Shown: one piece after another, positions 1,903 through 42,553 of the stretch
Numbering within the stretch: the first letter of the stretch is position 1
Layout of the letters: each line of letters opens with the position of its first letter
From: an uncultured Gammaproteobacteria bacterium
GTDB taxonomy: Bacteria; Patescibacteriota; Patescibacteriia; VMEV01; CAYQCH01
NCBI GenBank assembly: GCA_964415935.1
Contig: CAYQCH010000003.1
Span: forward strand, 1-48,332
Length of the DNA: 48,332 bases
Reading direction: 5' to 3'
Notes under the pieces: generated by a model
Databases searched by the model: none
Seen by the model: only the letters and a program-made list of their open reading frames with translations
Told to the model about the DNA's origin: nothing
Translations under genes and position numbers: made by a program

Positions 1903-1905
1903 ACG

Positions 1906-2382: not shown

Positions 2383-2383
2383 G

Positions 2384-3535: not shown

Positions 3536-3555
3536 ATGAATCTATTTTACCAAAG

Positions 3556-4884: not shown

Positions 4885-4893
4885 ACACTAAGA

Positions 4894-7701
4894 CTACCCT
4901 TGCTTAAGGTTTTCGTTCAAAATATCCACATGCTCTTTCTTGATGCCGAACTTTTCAGCATTATCCACCAAAAACTGCTTGGTGTTACGTGGAATTCTTC
5001 CTAATGTCGTTTCATTGGTAATAATCGGCGCGAAGTCTTCCAACTTCAGACGCTCCGAGATGCCTTCGTCCGCAACATACTTGTTTGTGATTGGATCCTT
5101 ATATCCCAACCCATCGCGGCCAAACTTGCGCAGCATATCTTCCAAACTCTGGCCTTCTGTACGATTCTTGATAATTTGTTTCCGCTGCTCCTTCTTTACC
5201 AATTCGAAATCTTTTGTAAGACCATCCATTCTGACCCATCCAGTGTCCGCGAGCTTATTGGCTCCAGCATTTCGGCCCTGCATTTCGGAAATGATGTTTA
5301 ATGCATCCTGCCGTTCAAATCCAAGCTCCTGCTCCAGGTGATCTACCACCGCTGCGCGACCTTCAATCGTGGCCGTAAATTTTGGATTCAAGCGCAGCAG
5401 GACATCATCCGCATTCCCCTGCTTGGCGGCTTGCAGCAAATCACCGGCAAATTTTTCACGGTTGTCGCGGTTATCGTTTGAACGTAATTGCGAATACAAA
5501 TCTTCTAAGTCGTATTTAACATCCCGCTCAAAGTTTTGAGAAACATAGTCCTTGATTTTATCCATGATGTCGGCACGAGAAGCCGCGCGGGCGACCTGCA
5601 CGTCTTTCTGACGTCGCTTGAGCTCTTTAATGGACCGCTCGCCGCGACCTTCCCATGTCGCATCCTTTTGCGAAATGCTTCCCGCAATCGTATTGCCAAC
5701 ACCGATATCCCCCTTTGAGCTCTTCAGAGCCTCGCTCATGGCTTTCAACTTGTCTCCGTTTTGGTCAATCCCCTGCACCCGCGCAACATCGGCATATGCC
5801 GTTTCATCGTAGGCGTCACCGATTGCAGCCCTGGCTTCGTTTATTTGAGGGTTAAGCGCGTTGATCTGCGCATTGAGTTCCGCCGCGCGCACGGTGTCAC
5901 CACTTTCAAACGCATCGTCTCGCAACCGTTCAGTTTGCTTCAACTGATTCCTAAGGCCGGCCAGTTTTCCATATCGGTCAAAATTACCTGCGACTTCCAG
6001 CAATTTAGCGCGCGTCATGCCACCGTACACCCCCTGCTGCTCGGCAGAAAGGTTTTGATACACAAGTTTGGACTTGGAATCATCACGATATGCCTGACCT
6101 TGCGTCTTTAATTGATCCAAAGAACCCCGCTCCACGCGCCCAAACCCAAGCGTGGCGACAAGCCGAGATTTTAAATTGCCAAAGCTTTCACCTTTCACGA
6201 AACCCCGATTCCCTGATAAATAGCCATACGCTGCGGCCCCTAGCCCCCCGCGCTCGGAAAGCCATGCAAGCGTCGAAGCCTGCTTTCTTTCTGCATCAAT
6301 CGCAATACGCTCGCGCTTATCTTGCAAGCCACCCTTTACTCCCTCCCATGCCTGCCAGGGTTTTAAAAGACCAACAGGAATGCCCGTGCGTTTTGTAACC
6401 AGATCCGCGCCAAGGGAATACGTGCTTGCGGCGGCGCCCAGTAGCGACTTGGGAGTTTTTTTAAGCAAGCTTGCAAAGTTATCAATGCCGCTGACATCGC
6501 GGGCCAGACGCCCCCCGCGTACGCCCATCTGCTCGATGATTTCCAACGCAATAAACATCATGCCCAGCGAGATGAGATAGCCGACAAAAATTTGCGGGTC
6601 GGCGGCGACGGTTGATACCGACGGCGGCAAGGACTGGCTTGGACTGAATCCGTACGAACTTTGCAAATTGTTCACGTAAAAAAGCGCGATGATGTAGAGG
6701 AAAAACGCCCCCACCGGCCCGACAATCACATGTTTTATGAACTCTTCAAGCCATTGCCCCCAGTACGAAGCCGCGCGACCCGGGGCGCCCCATAAGAAAA
6801 ACGCGAGCGGAGACAAAATCATGAGAAACCACAGCACCAGGATGCGGAACACCAGAATGATGCAGAACATGACTAATCCGCCGAGGGCAAACACCATCAT
6901 GATAATGGCGATAATAATGGACACCAGGATAGTAACGATATCCAATGGTTCTTTTGTCAAATTTGCCGAATTAATGGATCCGAAGACGCCTCCGATACTC
7001 TCGGAACCAAGGGCGGTAATTGCCGGCAAACGCAACCCCAAAACGTATACCGGTAAAATTTCAATCAGCTGCGCGCCGAATGTGCGCATAACCGAGTCGG
7101 CAAAACTGATGGCGAGCAAACAAATGGTACGGCTCAGATTTACAAGCAGTGCGGCGACAATCAACCGAGGCAACGTCGAACGAAAATTATACGGCTGAAA
7201 CCGGATAATCGTGGAAATGGCAATGGCAATAAGAACAACAATGAAAAAGCTATTGATAATATCTCGTACAATACTCCATCCCACCCCCACCTCTGACTGC
7301 GTCGCATACCCCCTGTAACTCAGCGCCCATTTAAGAATCTCGATGGCAAGTGAGAATAAATAACCAATAAACGAGATAATCTGCAGTAAAATTCCCGCAA
7401 TTGATAACAGGAACAAGTTCACGATGGATTTTCCAGCAGTCTGCAGAGCTCCGATGGGATCCGAGAAAAAACTGGTGTTACTTTCGTTCTGCTCGATGTC
7501 TCCAACGCCTGTGGCGCCGCCCCCCGCTCCCGCGTCGCCGCCCGCCTCGTCACCTCCGCCGGCTGCCGGAGCATCTCCACCCGCCGGCGCGTCTTCCGCC
7601 GCAACGGGCACCGGCAGAACAGCAAAAAAGGCTGGTGTGAACACGAGCACCAGAGCAAAGAATATCGCGGCCATTTTTTGTTTGACGTTGACGGCCATCA
7701 C
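4894..7701 (-). CDS. VirB6/TrbL-like polytopic membrane protein with a long C-terminal coiled-coil/charged domain
   Basis: 935-aa ORF. It has an N-terminal signal/TM, a Gly/Ala/Asp-rich linker, many hydrophobic helices up to about residue 400, then a ~500-aa charged domain. It is the first gene of the operon that ends in VirB4. Confidence 0.55.
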   Translation of the reverse strand: MMAVNVKQKMAAIFFALVLVFTPAFFAVLPVPVAAEDAPAGGDAPAAGGGDEAGGDAGAGGGATGVGDIEQNESNTSFFSDPIGALQTAGKSIVNLFLLSIAGILLQIISFIGYLFSLAIEILKWALSYRGYATQSEVGVGWSIVRDIINSFFIVVLIAIAISTIIRFQPYNFRSTLPRLIVAALLVNLSRTICLLAISFADSVMRTFGAQLIEILPVYVLGLRLPAITALGSESIGGVFGSINSANLTKEPLDIVTILVSIIIAIIMMVFALGGLVMFCIILVFRILVLWFLMILSPLAFFLWGAPGRAASYWGQWLEEFIKHVIVGPVGAFFLYIIALFYVNNLQSSYGFSPSQSLPPSVSTVAADPQIFVGYLISLGMMFIALEIIEQMGVRGGRLARDVSGIDNFASLLKKTPKSLLGAAASTYSLGADLVTKRTGIPVGLLKPWQAWEGVKGGLQDKRERIAIDAERKQASTLAWLSERGGLGAAAYGYLSGNRGFVKGESFGNLKSRLVATLGFGRVERGSLDQLKTQGQAYRDDSKSKLVYQNLSAEQQGVYGGMTRAKLLEVAGNFDRYGKLAGLRNQLKQTERLRDDAFESGDTVRAAELNAQINALNPQINEARAAIGDAYDETAYADVARVQGIDQNGDKLKAMSEALKSSKGDIGVGNTIAGSISQKDATWEGRGERSIKELKRRQKDVQVARAASRADIMDKIKDYVSQNFERDVKYDLEDLYSQLRSNDNRDNREKFAGDLLQAAKQGNADDVLLRLNPKFTATIEGRAAVVDHLEQELGFERQDALNIISEMQGRNAGANKLADTGWVRMDGLTKDFELVKKEQRKQIIKNRTEGQSLEDMLRKFGRDGLGYKDPITNKYVADEGISERLKLEDFAPIITNETTLGRIPRNTKQFLVDNAEKFGIKKEHVDILNENLKQG

Positions 7702-7799
7702 AAGCGGAAACTGAAGTTGTTACGCCATAATTCTACCACATTCCACAAGCGGCACCAATCTTTACAGCCGCCTGCCGCTTTGCCACAATACCCATCACT

Positions 7800-8318
7800 A
7801 TGAATGACGAACATTTCATCGTTTTTGACACGGAAACAACGGGCCTTTATCCACATCTTGGCGATGCCATCATTGAAATTGCCGGGCTGCGCATTGATAA
7901 AGAAGGCAACGTGCTCGACGAGTTTCAAAAATTTATCAACAGCGGCATTCCATCGCATCCCGAAACCATCCGTATTCATGGCCTGACCGACCAGTTCATT
8001 GCCAAGCACGGTGTAGCGCCGCAGGAAGTGTTCCCCGCTTTCATGCACTTTGTGGGTTCATCCACGCTGGTAGGACACAACATCCGTGAATTTGATATGA
8101 AATTCCTTAACAGGCACCTGTTGCAGGTGGGCCTGGCTCCGGCGGAAAATCCGCTTATCGACACGCTGGATCTAGCCCGCGCAAAACTGCCGCAGCTGGG
8201 CAATCACAAGCTGGGCACGCTGGCCGGCAAATTCGGCATCGATTATACCAAAGCGCATCGCGCCATTGAGGACGTGAAAATCAACGCGGAAGTCTTTATC
8301 CGCCTTTTGATGCTTTAA
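7800..8318 (+). CDS. DnaQ-like DEDDh 3'-5' exonuclease (DNA polymerase III epsilon-type domain)
   Basis: 172 aa with all three Exo motifs: FDTETTGL (Exo I), GHNIREFDMKFL (Exo II) and HRAIEDV (Exo III). Confidence 0.85.
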   Translation: MNDEHFIVFDTETTGLYPHLGDAIIEIAGLRIDKEGNVLDEFQKFINSGIPSHPETIRIHGLTDQFIAKHGVAPQEVFPAFMHFVGSSTLVGHNIREFDMKFLNRHLLQVGLAPAENPLIDTLDLARAKLPQLGNHKLGTLAGKFGIDYTKAHRAIEDVKINAEVFIRLLML

Positions 8319-9033
8319 GCAAGGCGCCGACGGCCTTCCCTGCGCCCGCCGATGTTTTGGACCTGCTGGCCTGCCCAGCGCCTTCATATGACTTTTGCCG
8401 CTCATAGCGGCGGATGACCACGTACACGAGAATGGCCGTCGTCGTCCATTCCGGCAACACTTCCCCGACTACGGGAATAAGGCCGATACCCGCGGCCATA
8501 GCAGAACGCTCCAACATCGTCCTCTTCAGATGCTTGGGCGCGCGCCGGATGATGAGATAGATATAGGCTGACCAGGTGATGGGAAACAATACCCAGGCGA
8601 CAAGCCAGCCGATGCCGATAAGATCAAAAACCAAGGGCAGGCCGTCCTGAGCCAGGGCAAAAAACCCAAACGCAATGAATGTGCGAAGACCGATGGGATT
8701 GGGATAATTCGGGTCTTCGGGTTCTGACGTTTGGTTGCGGTTTTGCTGGCGGGATGAAGCAGCAAGCCTGCGTTGGGCCGCCCCGATGCCGCGGCCAGCC
8801 CCGGGGGTCGAACGCAAGGCGCGCGCACTCCCGGGCACCGTCAGGCCGTTTTGCGATGGCGGCGCGGAATCTCGCGCCCCGGAGGGCTGGGCTGCGCCCG
8901 GCTGCGGCACGTTCAGCGGCGGCTGCGAAACCTGCTGCTGCAAACGCGCGCGGTTTCGCGCCGCGTCCAATTGGGATGCGGTCTGCTGGGGGTCAAATCC
9001 CCCTGTTTTCATGGAAGCGGGCAAATCAGCCAT
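8296..9033 (-). CDS. hypothetical membrane protein (Gln/Pro/Ala-rich N-half, ~3 TM helices in the C-half)
   Basis: The ORF 8296..9237 was trimmed to the in-frame ATG at 9033 (MADLPASMK), because the upstream part overlaps the end of the M23 peptidase gene. Hydrophobic helices are present, e.g. FIAFGFFALAQDGLPLVFDLIGIGWLVAWVLFPI. Confidence 0.45.
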   Translation of the reverse strand: MADLPASMKTGGFDPQQTASQLDAARNRARLQQQVSQPPLNVPQPGAAQPSGARDSAPPSQNGLTVPGSARALRSTPGAGRGIGAAQRRLAASSRQQNRNQTSEPEDPNYPNPIGLRTFIAFGFFALAQDGLPLVFDLIGIGWLVAWVLFPITWSAYIYLIIRRAPKHLKRTMLERSAMAAGIGLIPVVGEVLPEWTTTAILVYVVIRRYERQKSYEGAGQASRSKTSAGAGKAVGALLKASKGG

Positions 9034-9125
9034 ATAGCGGCATTGTACCAATCCGGGAGTGGAAAAAGAAACGGCGCAGGTTGCGTGGGGGACACAACCT
9101 GCGCCGTTTTGGGAGGGCGCGGCGC

Positions 9126-11453
9126 CTAGTCGGGGGGGAGACGCCGCACCGGCACTAACGTGAGCGTAATCAGGAGGAAGAGGATGAGCCCGATACCCGC
9201 TGGCGGCGCATGAGCCGCAGCAGGAGCAAGCATGCATCCCCCGCCCCCGCCGCCTCCGCTGCTGGGCGAAGACGGTGATGGATTGTACCCGCCTGGCGGG
9301 TTTGGCGGCGCGGACGGAACCGAGCCGCCTGTGTTTCCGTTGCTGCTTGAACCTGATCCGCCGGACGAGCTGGGCGGCGTGTTGCCGCCGGAACCAGCCA
9401 CCGCTTCCAACGTCAGGACAAGCTCGTCGTAACTGATTTCCCGTCCTGACTCGCCAGTGGCGTTGTGCTGCTGGATCATGAGGCGGTCACCCGCCTGCAG
9501 GTCCATCTGGCACACTTCCACCAGACCACCCTTTACGCCTGCCGCCTGGCTGACGGTATGCGTCTCCAGGCCAAGCACGCGCGGCCGGCTGATATCAAAT
9601 ACGGCGGAGGCGGTTGTGTTATGCGACGTCACGCCGTTGTTGTCGTTGGTAACGCCGCTGGGATTGTGCATCCACAGCTTCCAGGTACCCGACGCCGGAA
9701 TGATGGCGTCATACGATGCGTACGACGTGGGTTGGCGGGCGGCGGTCGTGTAGTCCCAACGCTTGGCATGGCCATACCCGTTCGTGTCACTGTTGGGCGC
9801 AGTTACCACCAGCTCCGGCAAAATCAGCAACGACGAAGGGATCACGCGGTTGCCCGCCGTAACCGTCTCGCTGTAGCCAATCACCTGCCGGACCGTCTGG
9901 TCGTCAAGGAAGAACGGTTCCGGTACCACGGAGACCCAGGCGCCGTTGATCCACTCGCAGAATGTGTAGTGGAGGTGCGTGCCCTGCGACGAAGCGCCGG
10001 TGTTGCCGCACAACCCAATGGGCTGGCCGCGAACGACGCTCTGGCCGTCGCGCACAAGCACAGACGAGAGATGCAGGTATTGCGCACGGTACTTCCTGCC
10101 GCTGGTCTGGTCATCGTACTCGATGTCCACAAAACGGCCGCCGCCGGGAAAGACCCCCGTCCTGGCGATGCCGGCGATACTTGCGACCAGTTCCAGCCCA
10201 AAGTCATTGCTGCCTCCGGACGGATGGTTGAAGTCCTGTCCCCAGAGATGCAGCTGGCCAAGATGGTCGCCTTCGTTGTAGTTGTTGCCGCTCCTGATCC
10301 AGGTCCCATGCACGGGAAGGAACAGCTGCGGCCAGGGTGATACATCCAGCAAAAGGCTGGCATACGAGGACCAGTTGCCGTTGGCATCACGCACGCGATA
10401 ACGCAACTCTTGCTGTCCGACGTACAGATCATGCGGACCGGTCGTGATGCTGGCGGCCGCCCCGATGACCTTACTGATGCCGTTCTGGTGCAGGCTCCAT
10501 TCATGCTGGGTGGGCGTCCCGCCTTGCGCGCTGCCCTGCAGTCGCAAGACGTGATACCGCCGCAATGGAATGGCCCCGCGGGCAACCAGGTCATACTGTT
10601 CGACGTACGCTCCCAGCGTTGACGCCCGCAGCACTGACCGCTCCACCACTGCCGACTGGATACGGCCGGTCATGGTCGTCGGTCCCGGCGGGTTGGGCGG
10701 CGTGCCTGCCTGCACATTCAGCGTTGACGTGGCGGCCGGGCTCCAACCGAACTGGTTGCGGGCCAGAAAGCGGATGGCGTAGGTACCGGCGGCAAACGAC
10801 TGCTGCACCGTCGGCGCGGAACCAAACACCTGTCCATTGGCCTCCCACCGATACTCGATGGGGTTCTGCGTGGCCGTGCCGCTGAACTGCACCGTCGCGC
10901 CGGCCGCGGGATTGACCGGGCTGACCGACTGGATGGTTGCGGCAGGCACCTGACCTGGCGGAGGAGATGTTGCCGACGTGACCACCACCCGGATCCGGGT
11001 GGTGCCCCAGTCATAGATGTATCCGCCTTGCGCATGGTACGGACGGAAATAGCAGTCGTGCGTCCCAATACCAAGGGCGCGGCCGTCGACCTGCACCTTG
11101 AAGACAAAGCGGGCCACCTGCTGCGGCGCAACGCCTTGCTGCGCCTGCATGAAACTGCCGACGCGCTGGCGGTTAATCCAGCTGCTGTGATACAGCGGCC
11201 CGTCAATGGCGATGCCGCCGGTACCCACCGGCCGCAACTCGATGTACTGCAGGTTGCTGACGCCGCCGCTGTTCTGCCAGGTGGACGTCCCCGTGTTGGT
11301 GAAGTCGATTTCCACTTCCCGCTCGAAATTCTGCGCATCAGTCACCGCAATGGTGTCCGGATTCTGCGCAAAAAAACGGCAGGCATGTTGAGCGAAAGCC
11401 ATCTGTCCCTGCAGCAGCAGGAAACACACAGCCAGGTACATGGCTCGAAACAC
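9126..11453 (-). CDS. secreted multidomain M23 (LytM-type) metallopeptidase with Ig/PKD-like domains and a C-terminal anchor
   Basis: GTG start preceded by AGGAG at 6-nt spacing. Signal peptide MFRAMYLAVCFLLLQGQMAFA. M23 motifs LHLWGQDF and GNTGASSQGTHLHYTF. PKD-like repeats, a Ser/Gly/Pro linker and a terminal hydrophobic helix plus RR. Confidence 0.8.
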   Translation of the reverse strand: MFRAMYLAVCFLLLQGQMAFAQHACRFFAQNPDTIAVTDAQNFEREVEIDFTNTGTSTWQNSGGVSNLQYIELRPVGTGGIAIDGPLYHSSWINRQRVGSFMQAQQGVAPQQVARFVFKVQVDGRALGIGTHDCYFRPYHAQGGYIYDWGTTRIRVVVTSATSPPPGQVPAATIQSVSPVNPAAGATVQFSGTATQNPIEYRWEANGQVFGSAPTVQQSFAAGTYAIRFLARNQFGWSPAATSTLNVQAGTPPNPPGPTTMTGRIQSAVVERSVLRASTLGAYVEQYDLVARGAIPLRRYHVLRLQGSAQGGTPTQHEWSLHQNGISKVIGAAASITTGPHDLYVGQQELRYRVRDANGNWSSYASLLLDVSPWPQLFLPVHGTWIRSGNNYNEGDHLGQLHLWGQDFNHPSGGSNDFGLELVASIAGIARTGVFPGGGRFVDIEYDDQTSGRKYRAQYLHLSSVLVRDGQSVVRGQPIGLCGNTGASSQGTHLHYTFCEWINGAWVSVVPEPFFLDDQTVRQVIGYSETVTAGNRVIPSSLLILPELVVTAPNSDTNGYGHAKRWDYTTAARQPTSYASYDAIIPASGTWKLWMHNPSGVTNDNNGVTSHNTTASAVFDISRPRVLGLETHTVSQAAGVKGGLVEVCQMDLQAGDRLMIQQHNATGESGREISYDELVLTLEAVAGSGGNTPPSSSGGSGSSSNGNTGGSVPSAPPNPPGGYNPSPSSPSSGGGGGGGCMLAPAAAHAPPAGIGLILFLLITLTLVPVRRLPPD

Positions 11454-18134: not shown

Positions 18135-18329
18135 CTACGTCATGTCGGAGGAGTCCATGAACTGGGTCGCCCCCTCGCGACGTCCGTCGGAGCTGTCTTC
18201 GTCCGTCGGCATCTCGCGCCGGCCCGTCTTGGAGGCCAGATAGGCGCCCGACTGGTGCCTGTCCTTGCGCGCCTCCTGGCGGCGCTTGAGACGCTGCATG
18301 TCGTTACGAGCGCGCTGCGATCGGGACAT
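18135..18329 (-). CDS. small highly charged protein (64 aa), high-GC3 cassette
   Basis: The ATG is preceded by GGGGGG at about 5 nt. That SD overlaps the TAG stop of the upstream small ORF, suggesting translational coupling. Sequence MSRSQRARNDMQRLKRRQEARKDR...; no family recognised. Confidence 0.45.
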   Translation of the reverse strand: MSRSQRARNDMQRLKRRQEARKDRHQSGAYLASKTGRREMPTDEDSSDGRREGATQFMDSSDMT

Positions 18330-18338
18330 GTCGCCCCC

Positions 18339-18545
18339 CTAGCCCCTGGCCCGGCGGAGGTGCAGGTGGCGCTGCAGCGGCGCGCGCTGCGGCCGCCGGC
18401 CGATGATGATGCGGTCGGGCGGCATCACGGTGTCGCTCTCGTCGACGAGCGCGTCGATGGCCAGGTCCGTCTCGGCGGCCTTGTCGGCCATGGCCGCGAT
18501 CTTGCGGTTCCTGGTCCGGCCATCGCTCTTCTTGTTCTTCCCCAC
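18339..18545 (-). CDS. small charged protein (~68 aa from GTG 18545; an alternative ATG at 18491 gives ~50 aa)
   Basis: An in-frame GTG is preceded by GAAGGTG at 6-nt spacing. The track ORF extends to 18647, but that part coincides with the rpsO terminator hairpin. No family recognised. Confidence 0.35.
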   Translation of the reverse strand: MGKNKKSDGRTRNRKIAAMADKAAETDLAIDALVDESDTVMPPDRIIIGRRPQRAPLQRHLHLRRARG

Positions 18546-18598
18546 AGTGTTCACCTTCGGCGTAGAAACACGACCGTGCGAATCCGCTTTCTGTTTCC

Positions 18599-23190: not shown

Positions 23191-23240
23191 TAAAAAGTGA
23201 ACACCCCCGACAGAACCGTGAAAGTTCCGTCGGGGGTGTT
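23191..23240 (-). terminator. intrinsic terminator downstream of the 407-aa high-GC3 gene
   Basis: 12-nt perfect arms AACACCCCCGAC (23200..23211) / GTCGGGGGTGTT (23229..23240), extended by GAAC/GTTC. The minus strand continues CACUUUUUA. Confidence 0.65.
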
Positions 23241-23352
23241 GTGTGGAGCACCATGCCGGCAGCGTGGCCGCAGGCATGTTTACTGTTGGTCAGTCAGGCC
23301 ATACTCCATGGCCTGGCGGCTTGCCGTGTGGCGTTGCCGCGAGCGACGCGCG

Positions 23353-24576
23353 CTAGTGCGCGTTGTTGCCGCCCTCGAACGAGCTGGCCGGCGTGCCGAA
23401 GGCCGCGCCGTAGCTCGGGACGCCCGCGCCCACGAGCTGCTCGCTCTGGGGCGCGAACGGGGTCGAGCGGTTCGGCGTGGTGCTGAACGCGCGCTCGAAG
23501 CCCGAGGCCGCCGGCGCCGTCGAGTAGTCGCGGGCCAGGACCTCCTGCAGGTCCGAGGTCGCCGAGGCCAGGGCCGCGCGCTTGGTGCGCAGGTCCTTGA
23601 CCACGTTCTTGTGCCCGTTGGTGTGGGCCACCGCGATGCCGACCGTCGACATGAAGCCGGTCGGGTTGCGACGGCTCATGGCCAGCAGCTCCTCGGTGAA
23701 GGTGAAGCTGCCCGCGCCGTCCGGGTTCTGGAAGAGCTCGTCGGCCTTGCCCCAGCCCGTGCTGATCACGTCGATCAGCTTGCGGGTGGCGATGGCGCCC
23801 GCGTCGTGGCGGATGAACATCGGCGCCGCCGTCGACTGGTCGGAGACCATCGGGCGGGTGGGCATGGTGCCCACGTAGCGGACGTCGTACCCGCCCTGCG
23901 CGTTCGGGTAGAACCCGAGCACGCAGATCGAGGTGGGCGTGGCCATCGGGATGGCCGCCGAGGCGCGCTCCGTCTGGGCCAGCTGGGTCACGTCGTAGCC
24001 GTAGATGGCCACGGCGTACTTGGGCCTCTCGACCTGGGTCTTGGCGAACGCGCAGTTCGCCTTGACCCAGTCACCGCCGTAGATCCAGCCCAGCACCGCG
24101 GTGATGAACCGGGTGTTGGTGGTGCGGCCCTGGTCGTTCCAGGCGCCGTACTTGGTGAACGAGCGCCCGATCTTCACGTTGCGGATGTGCTGCTCGAGGG
24201 CCTTGAGCGTGATCACGCTCTTGCCCGCGAACAGCTCCTCGATCTTGTTCTGGAGCTGGGTCCGGACCTCGTTGATGTTGATCGGCAGGGTGATGCCGAT
24301 CGTGCTCAGGCCCTGGACCAGCATGCCGCTGATCAGGTTCAGCGCCTGCTCGGCGCTGAGGGTCTGGTCGAGGCCGCCCTCGATGCGGTTGAAGTCGACG
24401 ACGACGACGTTCACGTCCTTGCCCGTGTTGGTGGGCATGGGCGCGATGTCGTACTCGACGACGTCGTCGAGCTGGCGCTTGCTCACCGGCAGCATGACCA
24501 CGGTCATGTTGGGCGCGCCCAGCGACGCGGCGATGAGGCTGCGGATCGACGAACGACGGTTGCTCTGGAGACGCAT
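23353..24576 (-). CDS. orphan 407-aa protein with extreme GC3 codon usage; possible twin-arginine-like N-terminus
   Basis: Trimmed from ORF 23353..24882 to ATG 24576, preceded by GAAGGG at 6 nt. The G/C-ending codon bias begins exactly there. The N-terminus MRLQSNRRSSIRSLIAASLGAP resembles a Tat-type signal. No family recognised. Confidence 0.6.
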   Translation of the reverse strand: MRLQSNRRSSIRSLIAASLGAPNMTVVMLPVSKRQLDDVVEYDIAPMPTNTGKDVNVVVVDFNRIEGGLDQTLSAEQALNLISGMLVQGLSTIGITLPININEVRTQLQNKIEELFAGKSVITLKALEQHIRNVKIGRSFTKYGAWNDQGRTTNTRFITAVLGWIYGGDWVKANCAFAKTQVERPKYAVAIYGYDVTQLAQTERASAAIPMATPTSICVLGFYPNAQGGYDVRYVGTMPTRPMVSDQSTAAPMFIRHDAGAIATRKLIDVISTGWGKADELFQNPDGAGSFTFTEELLAMSRRNPTGFMSTVGIAVAHTNGHKNVVKDLRTKRAALASATSDLQEVLARDYSTAPAASGFERAFSTTPNRSTPFAPQSEQLVGAGVPSYGAAFGTPASSFEGGNNAH

Positions 24577-24777
24577 GCGAAACCCTTCTACCCAGGTTCT
24601 CTGTCCACCCCCGCCGAAATGACGGGGTATTGGAACAACCTGGATACTGGCCAGAGTCGGAGTCGAGTGAATGGCCACGATGCCATCCAATTCCCTACCC
24701 CTTCCCCAGTCAATCGACGAGTATAACTGACTGGGTAAGAGGTAGCTGTTTGTAAAGAACTGCCCCCGACTAGTTTC

Positions 24778-24798
24778 TGTCGTCATAATTTGACGACA
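24778..24798. promoter_or_regulatory. operator-like inverted repeat TGTCGTCA-N5-TGACGACA
   Basis: Perfect 8-nt arms with a 5-nt spacer, inside the ~600-nt non-coding region upstream of 23353..24576. It is related to the repeat at 24992..25010. Confidence 0.4.
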
Positions 24799-24970
24799 AT
24801 TTTTTCGAAAATGAAACGAAAAAAAAGAACCGCGAAATGCGATCCAGGAAAAACCATTCGGGACTGACAAGCGAAACCACAACCATTAAAGACAGTCGAC
24901 GTCCTTCAAGTGTTGCTGCTTCGCTTATCAGTACAAAATGGAAAGGGCTATCTGGTAACCGACAAAAGGC

Positions 24971-25010
24971 ATCCTACCAACGTCAAAAAAAGTTGTCAAT
25001 AACTGACAAC
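24971..25010 (-). promoter_or_regulatory. candidate sigma70-type promoter (TTGACA-17-TAGGAT) overlapped by inverted repeat GTTGTCA-N5-TGACAAC
   Basis: On the minus strand the -35 TTGACA is at 24999..24994 and the -10 TAGGAT at 24976..24971. The inverted repeat arms are at 24992..24998 and 25004..25010. Would imply a ~390-nt 5' leader. Confidence 0.35.
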
Positions 25011-25126
25011 AATATTTTCGTATCACTAAGGTTAGCCACATTTTTTGTCATGAAGAAAAAACACCCTGATTTATCAACAGTATCTGTGGATAAATTTTGA
25101 AATTTTTTCGATTATCGTTGTACTAG

Positions 25127-25155
25127 TTGATTATTCGCATGATGGTTGTTATAGT
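25127..25155 (+). promoter_or_regulatory. candidate promoter of tRNA-Cys (TTGATT-17-TATAGT)
   Basis: -35 at 25127..25132 and -10 at 25150..25155, about 40 nt upstream of the tRNA. Confidence 0.45.
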
Positions 25156-25193
25156 TTCTTTACAAAATGCCCTCTTTTGGGGCTATTTTTGAT

Positions 25194-25268
<75 letters not shown>

Positions 25269-25276
25269 TTTGCATA

Positions 25277-25305
25277 CAAAAAATCCCGCGCGAAGCGGGA
25301 TTTTT
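25277..25305. terminator. bidirectional terminator between tRNA-Cys and the 3D-domain gene
   Basis: AAAAAA-TCCCGC-GCGAA-GCGGGA-TTTTT: a symmetric A-run/T-run hairpin. Confidence 0.7.
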
Positions 25306-25316
25306 CGTTAGGGTGT

Positions 25317-25880
25317 TTATTCAACACCGCGGCCCTTGCCCCATTCAACGATTTCGATTTTGGCGTAGCGACGGCCGAATTTGACGGCTTCCTTATAGTC
25401 TTCCATCCAAATATCGATGTTGTTCTGGTAGCGGGTGTTCATGCGGTCTTCCACGCGGAACACCTTGGCGCCGAAATGGTCGGGAAAACGGACGCGGGTA
25501 CCGATAGGCAGGTTATTGGACGCGACCACGCCATCGCGGGTCAAGGAACCAATAGCCGTGGCATACGGTGAACCGTCAGTCTGGTTCTCCAAAGAGTTAT
25601 AGGCGGAAAGGGTCATGTAGCGGACAGCCACAGCTTCCTTGGGCGCATACAACTTGGCCTTCCAGTCCTCCTGGGCCTTGGCCAGGGATTCGCCGGTCAG
25701 CATGACCACCGAAGGGTCAGCCTGGCGAATGGACATCTGCGTGACGCCTACCCGAGCTGGCTTGGCATCAGAGGCGATAGCCGACGTCTGGGGGATCAGG
25801 ATGTTGGCGGCAAAAACCATGACCGCGACAGCCTGGCGCACCGGTGTGTTTTTGTTTTGCAAGGTGGTGTTGCTAGACAT
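25317..25880 (-). CDS. 3D-domain (MltA/RlpA-like double-psi beta-barrel) cell-wall protein
   Basis: Signal/TM, then YMTLSAYNSLENQTDGSPYATAIGSLTRDGVVASNNLPIGTRVRF...VEDRMNTRYQNNIDIWMED, typical of 3D-domain proteins. Confidence 0.75.
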   Translation of the reverse strand: MSSNTTLQNKNTPVRQAVAVMVFAANILIPQTSAIASDAKPARVGVTQMSIRQADPSVVMLTGESLAKAQEDWKAKLYAPKEAVAVRYMTLSAYNSLENQTDGSPYATAIGSLTRDGVVASNNLPIGTRVRFPDHFGAKVFRVEDRMNTRYQNNIDIWMEDYKEAVKFGRRYAKIEIVEWGKGRGVE

Positions 25881-26815: not shown

Positions 26816-27616
26816 TTAATTGTCTTTCCCCTGCTCCCAGAGCAAGGCAAAAGACTGTAAATAGGCTTCAGCAATAGTTTTGTTCCGGATCTGGATGATC
26901 ACCGGTTCCTGGCCGTACACCTCGATGGCAACCATTTCCTGCGTGATGCGCGTAAAGGTGGGATTGGAAAGTCCGACGGACAAGAATCGATATTCATTGC
27001 CCGGCTCGGAGGCAAAGTACTTTTTAAAATACTCATTGTTGTTGGTGGGCGCGATGAGGCGCTTAGTCACGCCATGCTGAATCTGTAGTGCGGTATACGT
27101 TTTATACCAGTCGCCCAGCAAGGAATAAAAAACTTTGTCGCTGGCGCCGCCGATGATGCGGATGATTTTGTCGGTGCGTCCTGCGGATTCGATCATGACT
27201 TTGAGGCTTTCGCGCAAACCCTGGCTGCCGGAGAGGATTTGGACATGCACGTCGTCCTGGGACTTCTGGCGCAAACGTTCCAGTTCCGCGATGGCCGTCT
27301 TGGCGATTTCTTCCTGCTGCTTGATCCGGTCCAAAATGACGGACGGGTTGGTGGCCAGCCAGTGCTGGCGGTTGTTCTTCATGATCATGCTGGCCATACT
27401 CATGTCCTTGAGTTTTTCCAGGGACTGGTAGACCAGCATGCGATGCAATTTTGTCTTGGTGACGATGGGGCCGACGCCGGTTAATCCGAGCTGTAAAAGC
27501 GCGATATACACTTGTGCTTCGCGTTCCGGAATGTTGAGCTGTTCCAGCAGTTTCTGCAGCGGCATAGGCGGGATGTCGTCAAAAATGGGCGACACTACTT
27601 TATACGACTTTATCAC
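26816..27616 (-). CDS. TrmB-family transcriptional regulator
   Basis: N-terminal winged-helix LEQLNIPEREAQVYIALLQLGLTGVGPIVTKTKLHRMLVYQSLEKL, characteristic of TrmB. The true start may be the internal ATG at 27565. Confidence 0.65.
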   Translation of the reverse strand: MIKSYKVVSPIFDDIPPMPLQKLLEQLNIPEREAQVYIALLQLGLTGVGPIVTKTKLHRMLVYQSLEKLKDMSMASMIMKNNRQHWLATNPSVILDRIKQQEEIAKTAIAELERLRQKSQDDVHVQILSGSQGLRESLKVMIESAGRTDKIIRIIGGASDKVFYSLLGDWYKTYTALQIQHGVTKRLIAPTNNNEYFKKYFASEPGNEYRFLSVGLSNPTFTRITQEMVAIEVYGQEPVIIQIRNKTIAEAYLQSFALLWEQGKDN

Positions 27617-27744: not shown

Positions 27745-28001
27745 ATGGTTCATGTGTACGTGCTACAAAGCAGAAAGATAAAACGCTATACACAGGCATT
27801 ACAAATGACCTCGATCGGCGGCTTCGAGAGCACGATCACAAATCCAACCGGAGCACGAAACACAAAGCCCCTTTCGCCTTGTTGTACGTCGAGACCCATC
27901 GTTCGCACACAGAAGCTCGGGAGCGTGAAAAGTATCTAAAATCAGGCATCGGCAGACAGCACCTTAAAAAGCTCCAGGAGAAATACGCGGGTGTCGTATA
28001 A
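27745..28001 (+). pseudogene. YhbQ/Slx1-type GIY-YIG nuclease ORF, frameshifted
   Basis: Frame 1 reads MVHVYVLQSRK from ATG 27745. A second frame reads KDKTLYTGITNDLDRRLREH...PFALLYVETHRSHTEAREREKYLKSGIGRQHLK, ending at TAA 27999..28001 inside the tRNA. The two parts need a 1-nt shift in AGAAAGATAAAA (27772..27783). Confidence 0.75.
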
Positions 28002-28061
28002 CGGCTATTATGTCAGCCTTCCAAGCTGAAGACGGGGGTTCGACTCCCCCTACCCGCTCCA
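27987..28061 (+). tRNA. tRNA-Gly (anticodon UCC), CCA encoded
   Basis: Acceptor GCGGGTG/TACCCGC, anticodon stem TCAGC/GCTGA, loop CTTCCAA, T-arm GGGGGTTCGACTCCCCC. Confidence 0.9.
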
Positions 28062-28102
28062 ATCTGATTGCAATTGCTTGGCAAGATCGAAAACTGAATT
28101 GT

Positions 28103-29068
28103 ATGGATAGCACCACACAATCTCTTATTCAAACTTTGATTAATCATCAGTCTAGATTTCAAAAAGCTCAAATAGATGTCTCGCGACATTTTTGCATTAA
28201 ACGTTTAGTAAATTTTCTAAAATCAAATCAACTTCTCTCAAGTATCATTGAGGAATTAAAAGCTAAGGTTGATAACGCTGTTGAAACAGAAAAAGCTGCA
28301 AAGATCTTAGTCTCTGGGCACCTTGGGGCAGATTTTGAAAATGAAAACAATTTTATCCTCCGGTCTTACTTTGTTTTGGAGGCATGCGCAAGCGGGGCAA
28401 GTAGTTCTGTGACCCATGCTGGCCAGGCAGTGAGCAAGGAACCAACTAGTGCAACAACGTGCCAAAGCGCCTTTTCAGACATGTATATAGAGCCGCTTGT
28501 AGCCTACCTCGTGAACGAGCTTCAAAATAATCGGACTGTATTGCTTGCATTAATTCAGTATAAGCAAAAGGTAGAGTGGTTCCGCCGAGAGGAGTTTCGC
28601 AAATCCATCAAAAATTGCAAAAATAAAAGAATTGAGGAGGAAGTATTAAATCCGGACGTTTACGAATTTCTTCATGATCGGGGTATAGAATTTTATATTG
28701 AGCCGTCATCAGAACAATCGAAAGGAAGGCCTGATCTCATTACCGCACAAGGCGACCATCCTAAGTTGATTCTTGATGGCAAATACTTGGACGATACAGA
28801 TACGGCAAAATCATATATTAAAAGTTCTTTTTCACAAGTGTACCAATACACTTATGATTTTAATCGCCCTTCGGGATATATTGTTTTTTTTAAAAACTTC
28901 AAAAGTGACTTAAAGTTTTCACTTCCGACCACAGAGCAGGGACTCCCCATCGTGACGCATAATGGAAAACACATTTATTTTGTTCTGATTGACATTACAG
29001 ATGTGAAATCCCCATCTAAACGCGGGAAAATAAAGGCTATAGATATATCAGAATCTGATTTGAGATAA
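28103..29068 (+). CDS. AT-rich orphan with a C-terminal PD-(D/E)xK nuclease-like motif
   Basis: The ORF was trimmed to ATG 28103, since the track start lies inside the tRNA. It has a helical N-domain, then IEFYIEPSSEQSKGRPDLITAQGDHPKLILDGKY (E...PD...DGK). Its composition is visibly much more AT-rich than the flanks. Confidence 0.55.
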   Translation: MDSTTQSLIQTLINHQSRFQKAQIDVSRHFCIKRLVNFLKSNQLLSSIIEELKAKVDNAVETEKAAKILVSGHLGADFENENNFILRSYFVLEACASGASSSVTHAGQAVSKEPTSATTCQSAFSDMYIEPLVAYLVNELQNNRTVLLALIQYKQKVEWFRREEFRKSIKNCKNKRIEEEVLNPDVYEFLHDRGIEFYIEPSSEQSKGRPDLITAQGDHPKLILDGKYLDDTDTAKSYIKSSFSQVYQYTYDFNRPSGYIVFFKNFKSDLKFSLPTTEQGLPIVTHNGKHIYFVLIDITDVKSPSKRGKIKAIDISESDLR

Positions 29069-29179: not shown

Positions 29180-29998
29180 CTAGGCGCCGCCGAAGCCGTC
29201 CGGATCCACCTCGGTGGCGGATGGACGGCGCGGGCGCGCGGCCGGAGCCTCGGGCTCCTCGACCGGACGCGGAGCGCTGGCGGGCAGCGAGCGGTCCGGC
29301 ACGGAAGCCGTGGGCGTCTCCTCCACCGCGGGCGGCGGAGGCGTGGGGTCGGTGTTCATCCTGGTGTGGATGACCCCGTCCTCGCCGGGCGTGGCCACGG
29401 CGGGCTCGGTGGAGCGAGCGCGGCGCGGACGCGGCAGGGACTCCGGCTCCTCGGCGGGCATGGAAGCGCCGCCGCGGAACCAGGCCATGATCTGCCTGTT
29501 GTTGACCGGCACGAGCCTGCCGTTCTCGAACGTGAAGTGCGAGACCAGGTCCAGCTCGGTGTCGACCACCATGCCGGGCTTCTCGATCTGCATGAACAGC
29601 GAGTAGATCAAGCCGTCAGCCCGAGCGGGCCAGACGACGTCACCGGTGGCGCTGTTCACGTTCAGCATGAGCCCGTTCTCCGGGTTGCTGCACACCTGCA
29701 GGGCCTCGTCGACCGTCTTGGGCATGAACTCCAAGACCTTGTCGAATGGGATGATGCAGGCCGCCTGGATGCGCTGCCGCTCCATCGCGGCGAACGTCAC
29801 CAGGTTGCAGCTGCTATCGACCGAGGCGACCACGGTGTAGTCGACCTTGGCGTCGCCGCTGCTGAGCGAACCCCAGTCGTTGGAGATCTCGGTCAGCTCG
29901 GCGCTGTTGAAGTACTGGTTGGGCGACGAGCAGCCGCTGCTGACGAGCAGCAGCACGAACGCCAGGACGACGGCCATGGCCTCAATAAGCGTGTTCAA
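29180..29998 (-). CDS. exported/lipoprotein-like orphan with extreme GC3 and a Pro-rich C-terminal tail
   Basis: TTG start 29998, preceded by GGGGGA; an alternative ATG is at 29977. Hydrophobic leader AVVLAFVLLLVSSGC. Nearly all codons from 29977 onward end in G/C. No family recognised. Confidence 0.6.
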   Translation of the reverse strand: MNTLIEAMAVVLAFVLLLVSSGCSSPNQYFNSAELTEISNDWGSLSSGDAKVDYTVVASVDSSCNLVTFAAMERQRIQAACIIPFDKVLEFMPKTVDEALQVCSNPENGLMLNVNSATGDVVWPARADGLIYSLFMQIEKPGMVVDTELDLVSHFTFENGRLVPVNNRQIMAWFRGGASMPAEEPESLPRPRRARSTEPAVATPGEDGVIHTRMNTDPTPPPPAVEETPTASVPDRSLPASAPRPVEEPEAPAARPRRPSATEVDPDGFGGA

Positions 29999-31702: not shown

Positions 31703-32356
31703 ATGCGGCGAATCTACGCCTTGCTCCCCGCCGTGGCGCTGTGCCTCGGCTGCTCCGCCTACAGCAACTTCAACCAGCCGGGCATGTTCCCCGAGGATCC
31801 GGAGATCCTCATGGCCGACGACCTGCAGTGGTCGGCGGACGATCTGGCCGAGTTCGGCCTGGACCGCAACGCCGTGAAGGGCAAGCCCTTCCTGCCGCCG
31901 GTCGACAACCGCCGCGACATGCGGTACTCCTTCCTGCGCCACGTCATCTCCGGCACCCGTCCGGACGGGCTGCCCAACCTGGTCGCCCCCGACGGCTACA
32001 ACCTGATGGTCTGGAAGGAGCGGCCCAGCGACGAGTTGACCGGCTGGATGCAGGTCTTCGCCTACCCCGCCGACTGGCAGCAGCGCGCGCGGCGCGGCCT
32101 GCACAGCCGCGACATCGGCTGGGCCTTCATCCGCCGCACGCATGACCTGCGGGGCTGGGAGAACGTCTCGCACGACTACCCCACCCGAACCTGGCGCCAC
32201 CCCACTCCGGCCGAGGAAGAGGTGCGCGGCGGACAGCCGACGATCTGGCACAGCCCGCGCCCGGTGCTGTGGCAGACCACCCCGTCGCCAAGCGCGGCTC
32301 CGGCGGCGGTGGCCTCAAGCCGCGTGGCCTGCCACTGCGGCCAGGTCCACCACTAG
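31703..32356 (+). CDS. exported/lipoprotein-like orphan with extreme GC3
   Basis: Trimmed to ATG 31703, since the track ORF starts upstream of the tRNA and runs through it. Leader MRRIYALLPAVALCLGCS. Almost every codon ends in G/C. No family recognised. Confidence 0.6.
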   Translation: MRRIYALLPAVALCLGCSAYSNFNQPGMFPEDPEILMADDLQWSADDLAEFGLDRNAVKGKPFLPPVDNRRDMRYSFLRHVISGTRPDGLPNLVAPDGYNLMVWKERPSDELTGWMQVFAYPADWQQRARRGLHSRDIGWAFIRRTHDLRGWENVSHDYPTRTWRHPTPAEEEVRGGQPTIWHSPRPVLWQTTPSPSAAPAAVASSRVACHCGQVHH

Positions 32357-42064: not shown

Positions 42065-42553
42065 ATGAGCAAAATATCACACGATAGCGAGACACCAGCT
42101 CATGGCAAACAAGTAATTACTGCTTGTGCCTTGATACATAAAAACTTTGATGGGGTGATGAAAGTTTTTTTGCCAAAACGAGCTCAGACGAAAAAATTCC
42201 TACCTGGCGATTTTGAATTGCCTGGGGGGCACATTGACTGGGGAGAAGATATTGTTGAAGGATTGAAGAGAGAGGTTATGGAGGAATTCGGTATGCGCAT
42301 AAAAGTCGGTGACCCATTCGCCGCTTTTACATACTCGAACGAAGTAAAAGGATCCCATTCGGTAGAGGTTGTCTACTTTGCAACTTTTGACGATCCGATT
42401 GCAAACATCAAACTGCACCCAGAAGATCATTCTGAATTCAAGTGGATATCGCAGGACGAAATAGACAGCATCGGACAAATCAGCGATATAGAATTAAAAA
42501 ATGTCCGAAAGGGTCTTGCTATTTTAAACGGAGCAAAGTCGTCGCTTTCATAA
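42065..42553 (+). CDS. NUDIX hydrolase
   Basis: Nudix box GGHIDWGEDIVEGLKREVMEEFG. The gene is visibly AT-rich relative to its neighbours. Confidence 0.85.
   Translation: MSKISHDSETPAHGKQVITACALIHKNFDGVMKVFLPKRAQTKKFLPGDFELPGGHIDWGEDIVEGLKREVMEEFGMRIKVGDPFAAFTYSNEVKGSHSVEVVYFATFDDPIANIKLHPEDHSEFKWISQDEIDSIGQISDIELKNVRKGLAILNGAKSSLS

Follow-up and report, generated by a model that had tools for sequence, protein, structure and literature searches.

RESULTS

The target gene and its codon composition

The stretch analyzed here, referred to as the window, is the 48,332-nucleotide (nt) DNA of contig CAYQCH010000003.1 (GenBank assembly GCA_964415935.1), and the subject of this work is a 407-codon gene near its middle, hereafter the target gene, together with the long leader that precedes it. 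An earlier annotation made from the letters alone (the sequence-only reading) had singled out this gene for its codons, which nearly all end in G or C, and had described it as a recently acquired orphan behind an operator-laden leader. The coordinates of the gene and of the other features discussed below are collected in Table 1.

The codon table of the target gene gives a GC content of 0.59, 0.48, and 0.988 at the first, second, and third codon positions (GC1, GC2, and GC3), which bears out the near-pure G/C endings noticed earlier. Among the two-fold amino acids only C- or G-ending codons occur. Lys, Glu, Phe, Ile, and Asn are written only as AAG, GAG, TTC, ATC, and AAC, and Asp, His, Tyr, Gln, and Cys likewise use C- or G-ending codons only. 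Five codons end in T (four CGT and one GGT), and none end in A. The GC content averaged over the window is roughly 56%, and 36 other genes of the window, referred to as the backbone, have GC3 values of 0.56 to 0.76 with 14% A and 19% T at third positions and a preference for GAA, TTT, and CAT (rpsO, 0.76; rplS, 0.71; pnp, 0.71).

This compositional bias ends exactly at both borders of the coding sequence (CDS). In-frame triplets 5' of the ATG have a GC3 of about 0.5 (derived by comparing a 509-codon open reading frame [ORF] at 0.89 with the gene at 0.988), and therefore the bias begins at the start codon. The gene limits proposed by the sequence-only reading held up, and the start agrees with the N termini of the orthologues and with their lengths of 408 to 413 amino acids (aa). 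Two longer versions of the gene, a 477-aa database gene call (P0001) and the 509-aa ORF from TTG 24882, were rejected as overextensions into the leader because of the upstream GC3 of about 0.5 and the orthologues that begin at the ATG. A 509-codon ORF on the opposite strand (23197..24726, plus strand; GC1, 0.91) overlaps the target gene codon for codon and is not a gene; it exists because the target gene, having no wobble A, contains no TTA, CTA, or TCA codons. The strong terminator that had been assigned to the gene also held up, and the homologous contig L004 stops exactly at the equivalent terminator U-tract.

A small, lineage-restricted family

A search of 5.8e9 proteins returned four clusters of homologues at 43 to 58% identity, and a profile search of 1.84e9 representatives returned 11 matches, nine of them convincing, which included six more distant members at 20 to 31% identity. 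Two weak profile matches were judged probably spurious, and the one inspected (P0013) was a repeat protein. No further members came from a second search, word-indexed and run with the 11-sequence profile. The family was not found in representative genomes of 185,579 GTDB species, in IMG/VR, or in JGI metagenome contigs; all homologues found sit on short metagenomic contigs. The earlier description of the gene as an orphan is therefore correct in that the family is tiny and lineage restricted, but the gene does have real relatives, down to 20% identity.

All family members share the codon bias. GC3 is 0.99 in L001 to L007, L088, L089, and L093, 1.00 in L092, and 0.94 in L090/L091; for the last of these, the annotation probably includes 45 noncoding codons at the start. 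The genes adjoining family members have GC3 values of 0.47 to 0.68, and the GC1 (0.54 to 0.59) and GC2 (0.42 to 0.48) of the family resemble those of the backbone. Across the family, CGT and GGT account for nearly all exceptions to the G/C endings, TTG is avoided despite its G ending, and well-delimited members have no A-ending codons. At conserved residues, distant pairs use the same codon at a frequency of 0.43 to 0.76, compared with a random per-amino-acid expectation of 0.40 to 0.78. Because the choice between C and G is nearly random and G/C endings are nevertheless kept across distant members, these endings must be actively maintained. The conserved trait is "G or C" at the wobble position and not particular codons.

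Gene order around the target gene is kept in four contigs (L001, L002, L088, and L089) and comprises tRNA-Cys, the leader, the target gene, a convergent gene for a membrane-anchored protein of about 200 aa, and tRNA-Ala, with tRNA-Cys recorded for L001, L088, and L089 and tRNA-Ala for L001, L002, and L088. L089 additionally carries a 3D-like gene upstream, and a 23-kb contig from the sample of L001 extends the synteny on the other side. Compared with the L001/L098 genome, the window's target protein is 58% identical and its neighbors are 70 to 92% identical. The junction between leader and gene is the same in five independent assemblies (L001, L002, L088, L089, and L093), so that the contig is not chimeric at these borders. 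Atypical composition (GC3 of 0.988 versus 0.56 to 0.76) was the only one of three genomic-island signs examined that we observed. The proposal of recent acquisition fails against the same-bias homologues in related genomes with conserved gene order, the near saturation of C/G choice, and the backbone-like GC1 and GC2. Together with the leader GC of 0.46, the same-bias distant orthologues, conserved synteny, saturation, and backbone-like GC1 and GC2 exclude recent transfer, gene conversion, and chimerism.

The window's PNPase is at best 53 to 58% identical to those in the 185,579 species genomes, and its top matches are metagenome-assembled genomes (MAGs) of Patescibacteria, or candidate phyla radiation (CPR), namely Magasanikbacteria, Buchananbacteria, Falkowbacteria, and small-genome MAGs labeled "Gammaproteobacteria." The host belongs to a deep, poorly sampled CPR lineage, and the target gene appears to be an old, vertically inherited single-gene transcription unit of that deep-branching lineage and no imported island.

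The coding sequence folds beyond what its codons require

Folding of the CDS was compared with two kinds of randomized sequence. In the plain test, synonymous codons were permuted among positions of the same amino acid, which leaves protein and codon usage unchanged; the dicodon shuffle additionally keeps dinucleotides and here swaps only 14 to 21% of wobble bases. Plain permutation gave z-scores of −3.2 to −6.0 in all eight family members tested, compared with 0 to −2.4 in eight backbone genes. With the dicodon shuffle, z was −7.1 for the window gene (−633 kcal/mol natively versus −573 ± 8.5 kcal/mol) and −6.4, −5.8, −4.3, and −3.3 for four relatives, whereas four backbone controls ranged from +0.35 to −1.6. 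Native CDSs of the family are thus 25 to 60 kcal/mol more stable than versions with the same protein, the same codons, and the same dinucleotides.

The minimum free energy (MFE) of the target CDS is −0.52 kcal/nt, and its MFE fold pairs 69% of bases, mostly locally (median span, 27 nt), with wobble-to-wobble pairing as the most frequent register. Clustering of C and G into blocks was considered as the source of this excess and rejected, as the two bases are unclustered along the wobble positions; the excess therefore comes from specific complementarity. A complementary wobble alphabet of two letters is the setting in which wobble-wobble pairing is easiest.

Codon alignments were also compared with codon-column shuffles in a consensus-fold test. 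The z-score was −4.4 for the window and L001, −4.1 for four nonredundant orthologues, and −2.8 for five that included distant ones, compared with −0.5 for a neighboring gene, −0.8 for YibE/F, +0.5 for a lipoprotein gene, and −1.3 for a kinase gene. A further z-score for the conserved fold, −10, was inflated by two 80%-identical sequences. The fold of the target CDS is conserved in part between orthologues, and the target gene is the only gene tested with a positionally conserved CDS fold.

The start of the gene is open. T-ending codons concentrate in codons 2 to 15 of 10 family genes, and the mean MFE of 40-nt segments is −4.5 to −6.5 kcal/mol at 0 to +30 around the AUG versus −10 to −15 kcal/mol in the gene body. 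The ribosome-binding site is likewise weakly structured. Start codons tend universally to be less structured (PMC2816680).

The leader is a conserved multi-hairpin RNA

Upstream of the target gene, a spacer of about 620 nt reaches to tRNA-Cys, and its nucleotide conservation exceeds that of the protein, even where the protein is only 21% identical. GC content is 0.50 in 24501..25000 and 0.44 in 25001..25500 of the window, and 0.46 to 0.47 upstream of the gene in homologous contigs. The TTGACA-17-TAGGAT promoter predicted by the sequence-only reading was recovered here, with an extended −10 TG.

Downstream of this promoter lies hairpin A, for which a covariance model (R1) scores 108 to 162 bits in six loci. 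In an alignment that was fitted to the model and has six sequences only, pairing extends to 95.9% of cells and compensatory changes occur in 15 of the 37 pairs, a count matched by none of 500 shuffles and compared with at most 5 in slid controls. Numerous G-U pairs in the hairpin point to the sense strand. In the six loci, hairpin A is followed directly by T1, a terminator-like hairpin with a U-run, which may be either an attenuator or the end of a leader small RNA (sRNA). Further downstream, the distal leader has at least four more hairpins (B1 to B4), three of which differ in sequence between loci with the stem kept (a formal count was made for B1 only). The third GTCA/TGAC repeat that had been listed with the palindromes is covarying RNA hairpin B1.

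Folded as a whole, the 389-nt leader has an MFE of −164.7 kcal/mol (z = −9.65). Its MFE and centroid folds retain hairpin A and T1, and no alternative pairing was evident by inspection. The leader has no match in Rfam 15: only tRNAs pass the gathering score in the window, and a permissive scan of 24500..25200 gave sub-threshold chance matches. The invariant leader motif had four chance matches in JGI contigs and none in IMG/VR, and no second copy of the hairpin A/T1 element was present in 91 kb of related sequence. The conserved GTTCTTTACA box was also considered as a promoter; this was rejected, as no −10 element at the right spacing could be read in any locus. The leader is a conserved multi-hairpin RNA with an attenuator-like intrinsic terminator. 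The sequence-only reading was right that the region carries regulatory signals and overlooked the RNA itself.

Some homologous contigs may derive from RNA. Six of them (L003, L004, L005, L006, L007, and L092) are 1.35 to 1.5 kb long and cover the target gene only, with recurrent 5' ends at about −160 and about −101 relative to the ATG. Three of these, from different samples (L003, L007, and L092), begin 155 to 162 nt 5' of the ATG, just before hairpin B2, and L007 has an Illumina adapter fused at its 5' end. These short single-gene contigs look like assembled transcripts with a processed 5' end near 24695 and, with the strong promoter, give an indirect hint of abundance; assembly breaks at junctions of conserved and variable sequence would be an alternative source of the recurrent ends.

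An inverted repeat, TTATCCACAG-N3-CTGTTGATAA (25071..25093), lies where the tRNA-Cys and target promoters diverge; it contains a perfect DnaA-box consensus and is conserved in most related loci. The cumulative GC skew shows no origin-like turn at this repeat.

Palindromes and a TrmB-like regulator

Both related palindromic sites proposed earlier are present in the leader region, a perfect one within the leader and a degenerate one over the −35 element. The exact TGTCGTCA-N5-TGACGACA occurs once, and none is expected in 100 shuffles, even allowing 2 mismatches. A second copy lies directly 5' of the gene for a TrmB-like regulator (26816..27565), in which family scans find a TrmB-type helix-turn-helix (HTH) domain. 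This regulator is 92% identical and syntenic between the window and the L001/L098 genome, where the palindrome is kept at the same spot (L098 12936..12956). The annotated starts of the TrmB-like gene (GTG 27616; ATG in L098) probably overextend across the palindrome.

The palindrome thus recurs at the target promoter and at the regulator's own gene, as expected of a TrmB operator set, and the copy at the regulator gene strengthens the TrmB-like regulator, already named by the sequence-only reading, as a candidate to bind the palindromes. A TrmB-like repressor would probably act on the TGTCGTCA-N5-TGACGACA sites. The site within the leader is absent in L002, and its asymmetries in L089 and L090 remain pairable through G-U when read in the sense direction, so that this site may function as RNA.

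The encoded protein

The target protein has no match in Pfam (also by a per-member family scan), PHROGs, NCBIfam, or PADLOC, nor in a sequence-profile search of the PDB. AlphaFold2 (AF2) with 11 sequences produced a moderate alpha/beta model (predicted local distance difference test [pLDDT], 66.6; predicted template modeling score, 0.53) with a disordered tail from residue ~353; a first run with five sequences was too poor for use (pLDDT, 44.5). Foldseek comparison of this only moderate model with the PDB and BFVD gave a best E value of ~0.5 and TM scores below 0.2. The capsid- or encapsulin-like fold that the sequence-only reading had suggested checking found no support in either database, or in PHROGs.

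Two regions of the protein are conserved, an N-terminal segment R-x-(F/L)-S-(I/M)-x-S-(L/I)-x-A and an ELVGAG...(S)F motif that ends the disordered C-terminal tail. Two members have Arg/Lys/Asn-rich N-terminal extensions, of ~45 residues in P0007 and nominally ~100 in P0008, the first ~45 annotated codons of which are probably not coding. The N terminus had been compared with a twin-arginine translocation (Tat) export signal, which these data do not bear out. The RR pair occurs only in the window protein, P0002, and P0010 (others have IRHGR, VRTG, TRG, or SRV), an Arg sits inside the would-be hydrophobic region (h-region; SIRSLIAASLG), there is no AxA site, two members carry the N-terminal extensions, and the segment is modeled as a helix and strand of the fold with a pLDDT of 73 to 87. 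No Tat component turned up when the main ORFs of the 48-kb window were scanned with Pfam. The sequence has no classical signal peptide, and Pfam and NCBIfam show no SLH/CWB2-type anchoring domain.

Other genes of the window

Besides the target gene, the window carries pnp, rpsO, rplS, ssb, an ABC-F gene, a XerC/D-like recombinase gene, six tRNA genes, and a PrgI-family gene. Other genes of the window also have high GC3 values, three of them listed in Table 1. The two lipoprotein genes encode lipoboxes VSSGC and LCLGC and have a GC3 of about 0.93 to 0.95; their orthologues in L098 have a GC3 of 0.92 to 0.93 and are 56 to 57% identical by global alignment (51% by BLASTP). Lipoprotein gene 1 folds better than its shuffles (z = −3.8 to −6.5), and lipoprotein gene 2 is weaker (z = −2.7 by plain shuffle, with −0.95 by dicodon shuffle for its orthologue). 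Both halves of the Ser/Thr kinase gene fold far better than dicodon shuffles (z of about −5), with no positional conservation of structure relative to the L098 orthologue. The kinase also matches PADLOC kinase models (PD-T4-6 type), probably as a generic kinase match. Two small ORFs with G/C wobbles, encoding highly charged products of about 71 and 64 aa, lie in the same frame one stop codon apart between rpsO and a NYN-domain gene (18135..18555, minus strand), with a structured spacer before them and a strong terminator after them. Window genes with GC3 values of 0.68 to 0.78 show no folding excess. The less extreme recoding of the lipoprotein, kinase, and small-ORF genes would make the target gene the extreme member of a "structured-mRNA" gene class in this lineage.

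Other parts of the window differ in other ways. A low-GC gene without a family at 27987..29068 (GC3, 0.36) abuts or overlaps tRNA-Gly(UCC), and the same slot in L098 (11040..12470) holds a different, 476-aa gene with a GC3 of 0.80; this slot appears to be a variable insertion spot and a better candidate for recent acquisition than the target gene. A NUDIX hydrolase gene directly after tRNA-Val (42065..42553, plus strand; GC3, 0.41) is a second compositional outlier, in the direction opposite to that of the target gene. The run at 1207..11453 (minus strand) encodes a PrgI-family (type IV secretion) protein, a 935-aa protein, several 300- to 450-aa proteins without a family, and a 775-aa M23 peptidase/PKD protein; it may represent a surface apparatus resembling those for conjugation or competence, as is typical of CPR genomes.

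Table 1. Positions of the target gene, its leader elements, and other features in the window
Feature	Position	Strand	Remarks
Target gene CDS	23353..24576	−	ATG 24576 to TAG 23353, 407 codons/aa; novel lineage-restricted family
Intrinsic terminator of target gene	23191..23240	−	18-bp stem at 23200..23240 with 10 G-C pairs, then T-run
Open initiation region, first ~15 codons	24531..24576	−	Rare T-ending codons (CGT, GGT, CCT) cluster there
Shine-Dalgarno-like GAAGGG	24583..24588	−	6 nt before ATG; GAAGG-type motif at the same place in most orthologues
Distal leader	24577..24760	−	Alignments and RNAalifold
Hairpin B4	within 24577..24760	−	Distal leader
Hairpin B3, ACUCUGSSCAGAG	24646..24657	−	Nearly invariant; alignment
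Hairpin B2	about 24669..24688	−	Alignment and RNAalifold
Hairpin B1	24704..24735	−	Covarying; alignment and RNAalifold
Conserved GUUCUUUACA box	24751..24760	−	Distal leader alignment
Perfect palindrome TGTCGTCA-N5-TGACGACA	24778..24798	−	About +165 to +185 of leader; candidate operator and/or RNA hairpin
T1, terminator-like hairpin and U8	24819..24845	−	Directly after hairpin A; stem sequence varies across loci, stem and U-run persist
Leader hairpin A, 88 nt	24854..24941	−	Long imperfect stem, nearly invariant apical UUGAAGGACGUCGACUGUCUU; RNAalifold
Sigma-70-type promoter TTGACA-17-TAGGAT	24971..24999	−	TG extended −10; in six loci −35 invariant and −10 region conserved
Palindrome GTTGTCA-N5-TGACAAC	24992..25010	−	Overlaps −35; degenerate TGTCGTCA-N5-TGACGACA with 3 mismatches here, 2 in L002 and L089
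Second palindrome copy TGTCGTCAAAAATGGGCGACA	27574..27594	.	2 mismatches; directly 5' of MPLQKLL start of TrmB-like gene
Lipoprotein gene 1	29180..29998	−	GC3 0.93
Lipoprotein gene 2	31703..32356	+	Near-exclusive G/C-ending codons
Ser/Thr kinase gene, 968 aa	34652..37558	−	GC3 0.84; weak TPR-type repeat matches

DISCUSSION

From these results, we infer that the codon bias of the target gene serves RNA base-pairing, a point missing from the sequence-only reading. Our best reading, plausible and still tentative, is that the gene produces an mRNA that is naturally "superfolded" and probably long-lived, encoding an abundant protein that evolves fast. The restriction of wobble positions to G and C would be the means to a tightly paired, GC-clamped mRNA body behind an open initiation site, a design that maximizes functional half-life and protein yield in engineered mRNAs. 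Structured coding sequences with an open 5' end have been found to lengthen functional half-life in designed mRNAs (Mauger et al. 2019, PMC6883848). Transcription would start at the near-consensus promoter, expression level may be set by termination or read-through at T1, probably together with a TrmB-like repressor at the palindromes, and processing of the transcript would probably leave a hairpin-capped 5' end about 160 nt before the AUG. The product would probably be abundant and fast evolving, a structural or envelope-associated protein with a new fold; this is a guess.

Several points weigh against this reading. That the protein is abundant and the mRNA long-lived we infer from sequence. 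In Escherichia coli, greater ORF-wide structure accompanies lower translation efficiency (PMC5318159), so that hyper-structure could limit translation instead of boosting output. One gene of the high-GC3 class encodes a Ser/Thr kinase, for which high abundance would not be expected, and the lipoprotein and kinase genes lack positional structure conservation. Lacking both a signal peptide and an anchor domain, the protein gives no support for an envelope location. Ribosomes unwind CDSs in vivo, and MFE predictions leave them out of account. Finally, the antisense strand of the target gene shows a similar excess of folding, and a folding test of sense against antisense could not tell the two apart; the mRNA is nevertheless favored as the selected strand by signatures of translation and by G-U pairing in the leader.

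Some alternatives concern how the gene is expressed. Ordinary translational selection, in which extremely high expression favors the codons best read by G34 and C34 tRNAs and structure is secondary, would account for the near-consensus promoter, the Shine-Dalgarno motif, the strong terminator, and the open start region. C-ending codons are universally favored in two-fold Y-ending families, the tolerated CGT and GGT share tRNAs with CGC and GGC, and rpsO leans the same way for Lys, Ile, and Gln. However, the two ribosomal-protein genes are ordinary (GC3, 0.71 to 0.76), with rpsO retaining GAA, TTT, GAT, and CAT, and TCC, which is favored in rpsO, is avoided in the target gene, as is the G-ending TTG. 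The pairs GCC/GCG, GTC/GTG, and ACC/ACG are used about equally and freely interchanged between orthologues, and A-ending codons are absent despite U34 tRNAs (Ala-UGC, Gly-UCC, and Val-UAC) encoded next door. Since translational selection also leaves unexplained the z-scores of −3 to −7 in shuffles that preserve codon usage, we regard it as unlikely. A different question is whether the first ~150 nt of the leader (hairpin A and T1) form an independent sRNA gene, with the protein mRNA starting downstream. In favor of such an sRNA, a consensus promoter precedes a covarying hairpin whose loop is invariant and an intrinsic terminator that is conserved, and the transcript-like contigs begin downstream of T1. 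Yet manual reading of six loci and a scan of the window found no promoter-like −35/−10 pair in the stretch from T1 to the ATG, the element never occurs apart from the target gene and has no second copy in the related sequence, and the downstream leader is also conserved and structured, as expected of a single transcript. An independent sRNA gene is therefore doubtful, though it deserves to be kept in view.

The transcript could itself be a functional RNA, for instance one packaged by a capsid-like or RNA-binding product as in a domesticated virus-like particle (VLP). Its 69% pairing and z-scores may be comparable to those of single-stranded RNA phage genomes, and structure conserved between orthologues is found in the target gene only. 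The Arg-rich N termini with the long basic extensions of P0007 and P0008, the disordered C-terminal arm with its conserved terminal motif, and the several public 1.35- to 1.5-kb contigs with recurrent ends that cover the target gene alone would all fit. In its boldest form, a genome-like structured RNA, the ~1.7-kb transcript, would be bound or encapsidated by the encoded Arg-rich protein (as a VLP or ribonucleoprotein) in an ultra-small epibiont, and more broadly the lineage would run a dedicated "structured-mRNA" class; this is a long shot. Packaging of the mRNA is improbable in general, given a model (moderate, as noted) without structural likeness to capsids or encapsulins in the PDB or BFVD, no PHROG match, no replicase or other viral genes nearby, no IMG/VR match, and the hyper-structure of unrelated genes of the same genome. 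The pattern could also be driven by GC-biased gene conversion in a recombination hot spot, or by selection that acts on the structure of the DNA or the antisense strand and not on mRNA, which would be consistent with the fast protein evolution expected of a recombining surface antigen and with the antisense folding described above. Gene conversion, however, would not respect codon phase, and here GC1, GC2, and the leader next to the gene (GC, 0.46) show no effect and the signal sets in at codon 2; G-U pairs of a kind confined to the sense strand occur in hairpin A and in the palindrome variants; and the open start-codon region is a signature of translation. We consider conversion or antisense selection very improbable. 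Recent horizontal transfer from a donor of high GC content, for example an actinobacterial host, could draw on a GC3 far above the backbone, tRNA genes on both sides, a XerC/D-like recombinase gene ~1.6 kb away, and few database homologues. Orthologues at 20 to 30% identity that retain the bias, gene order kept in four related contigs, saturated synonymous sites, backbone-like GC1 and GC2, a bias that stops at the CDS borders, and the lack of any homologue in the GTDB species representatives leave it barely credible.

Among known systems, natural selection on CDS structure is weak and genome-wide. Selection for local RNA secondary structure in bacterial coding regions was reportedly described by Katz and Burge in 2003. 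The target gene resembles this effect, and "superfolder" mRNAs, in that synonymous sites are arranged for pairing behind an open start and the same dicodon-shuffle test detects it. It differs from the known natural effect in being gene specific and extreme (z to −7; MFE, −0.52 kcal/nt), in excluding wobble A and T almost wholly in a genome of ~56% GC, in holding this state down to ~20% protein identity, and in its partly conserved fold. Selection on CDS structure is thus of a known kind; what is new is the unprecedented extreme, together with a new protein family and a new leader RNA.

S-layer, surface protein, and flagellin genes, such as Lactobacillus or Thermus slpA and Bacillus subtilis hag, are monocistronic and have a strong promoter, a long structured 5' untranslated region (UTR) thought to be stabilizing, and a strong terminator. 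The target gene is alike in its monocistronic unit, promoter, structured 5' UTR, terminator, and fast protein evolution, and its conserved GGA-containing loop and Shine-Dalgarno motif recall the CsrA-type sites on hag. Unlike those genes, it encodes neither a signal peptide nor an SLH/CWB or flagellin domain, and its product resembles theirs in neither sequence nor fold. The leader resembles terminator riboswitches and attenuators in having a promoter-proximal structured domain followed by an intrinsic terminator upstream of the gene, but it has no Rfam match and no identified antiterminator alternative, its "aptamer" is a single long hairpin, and beyond the terminator conserved structure continues for more than 200 nt. 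Operators of TrmB/TrmBL1 include the Thermococcales TGM palindrome, TATCAC-N5-GTGATA. The sites described here share with them an inverted repeat with a 5-nt spacer, placement at the target promoter and the regulator gene, and a regulator with a TrmB-type HTH; the half-site differs, the host is a CPR bacterium, binding is predicted only, and the internal site may be an RNA hairpin. As for Tat signal peptides, the window protein is alike in its RR followed by a mildly hydrophobic Ser/Ala-rich stretch, but the RR is unconserved, the h-region is charged and lacks AxA, some members have long N-terminal extensions, and the segment is conserved like a folded element.

If our reading is correct, the target gene would be a natural counterpart of therapeutic "superfolder" mRNA design, with wobble positions reduced to C and G and wired into helices, and this state would have been selected over very deep divergence in a genome of ordinary composition. 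Extreme GC3 in a single gene would then be an unreliable sign of horizontal transfer. The locus would also add a new protein family without a recognizable fold, a new conserved leader RNA, and a candidate TrmB-type regulon in CPR. CPR cells have been reported to have very few ribosomes. The gene would offer a clean system for how CDS structure sets mRNA lifetime and yield, a question that would matter most for ultra-small CPR cells.

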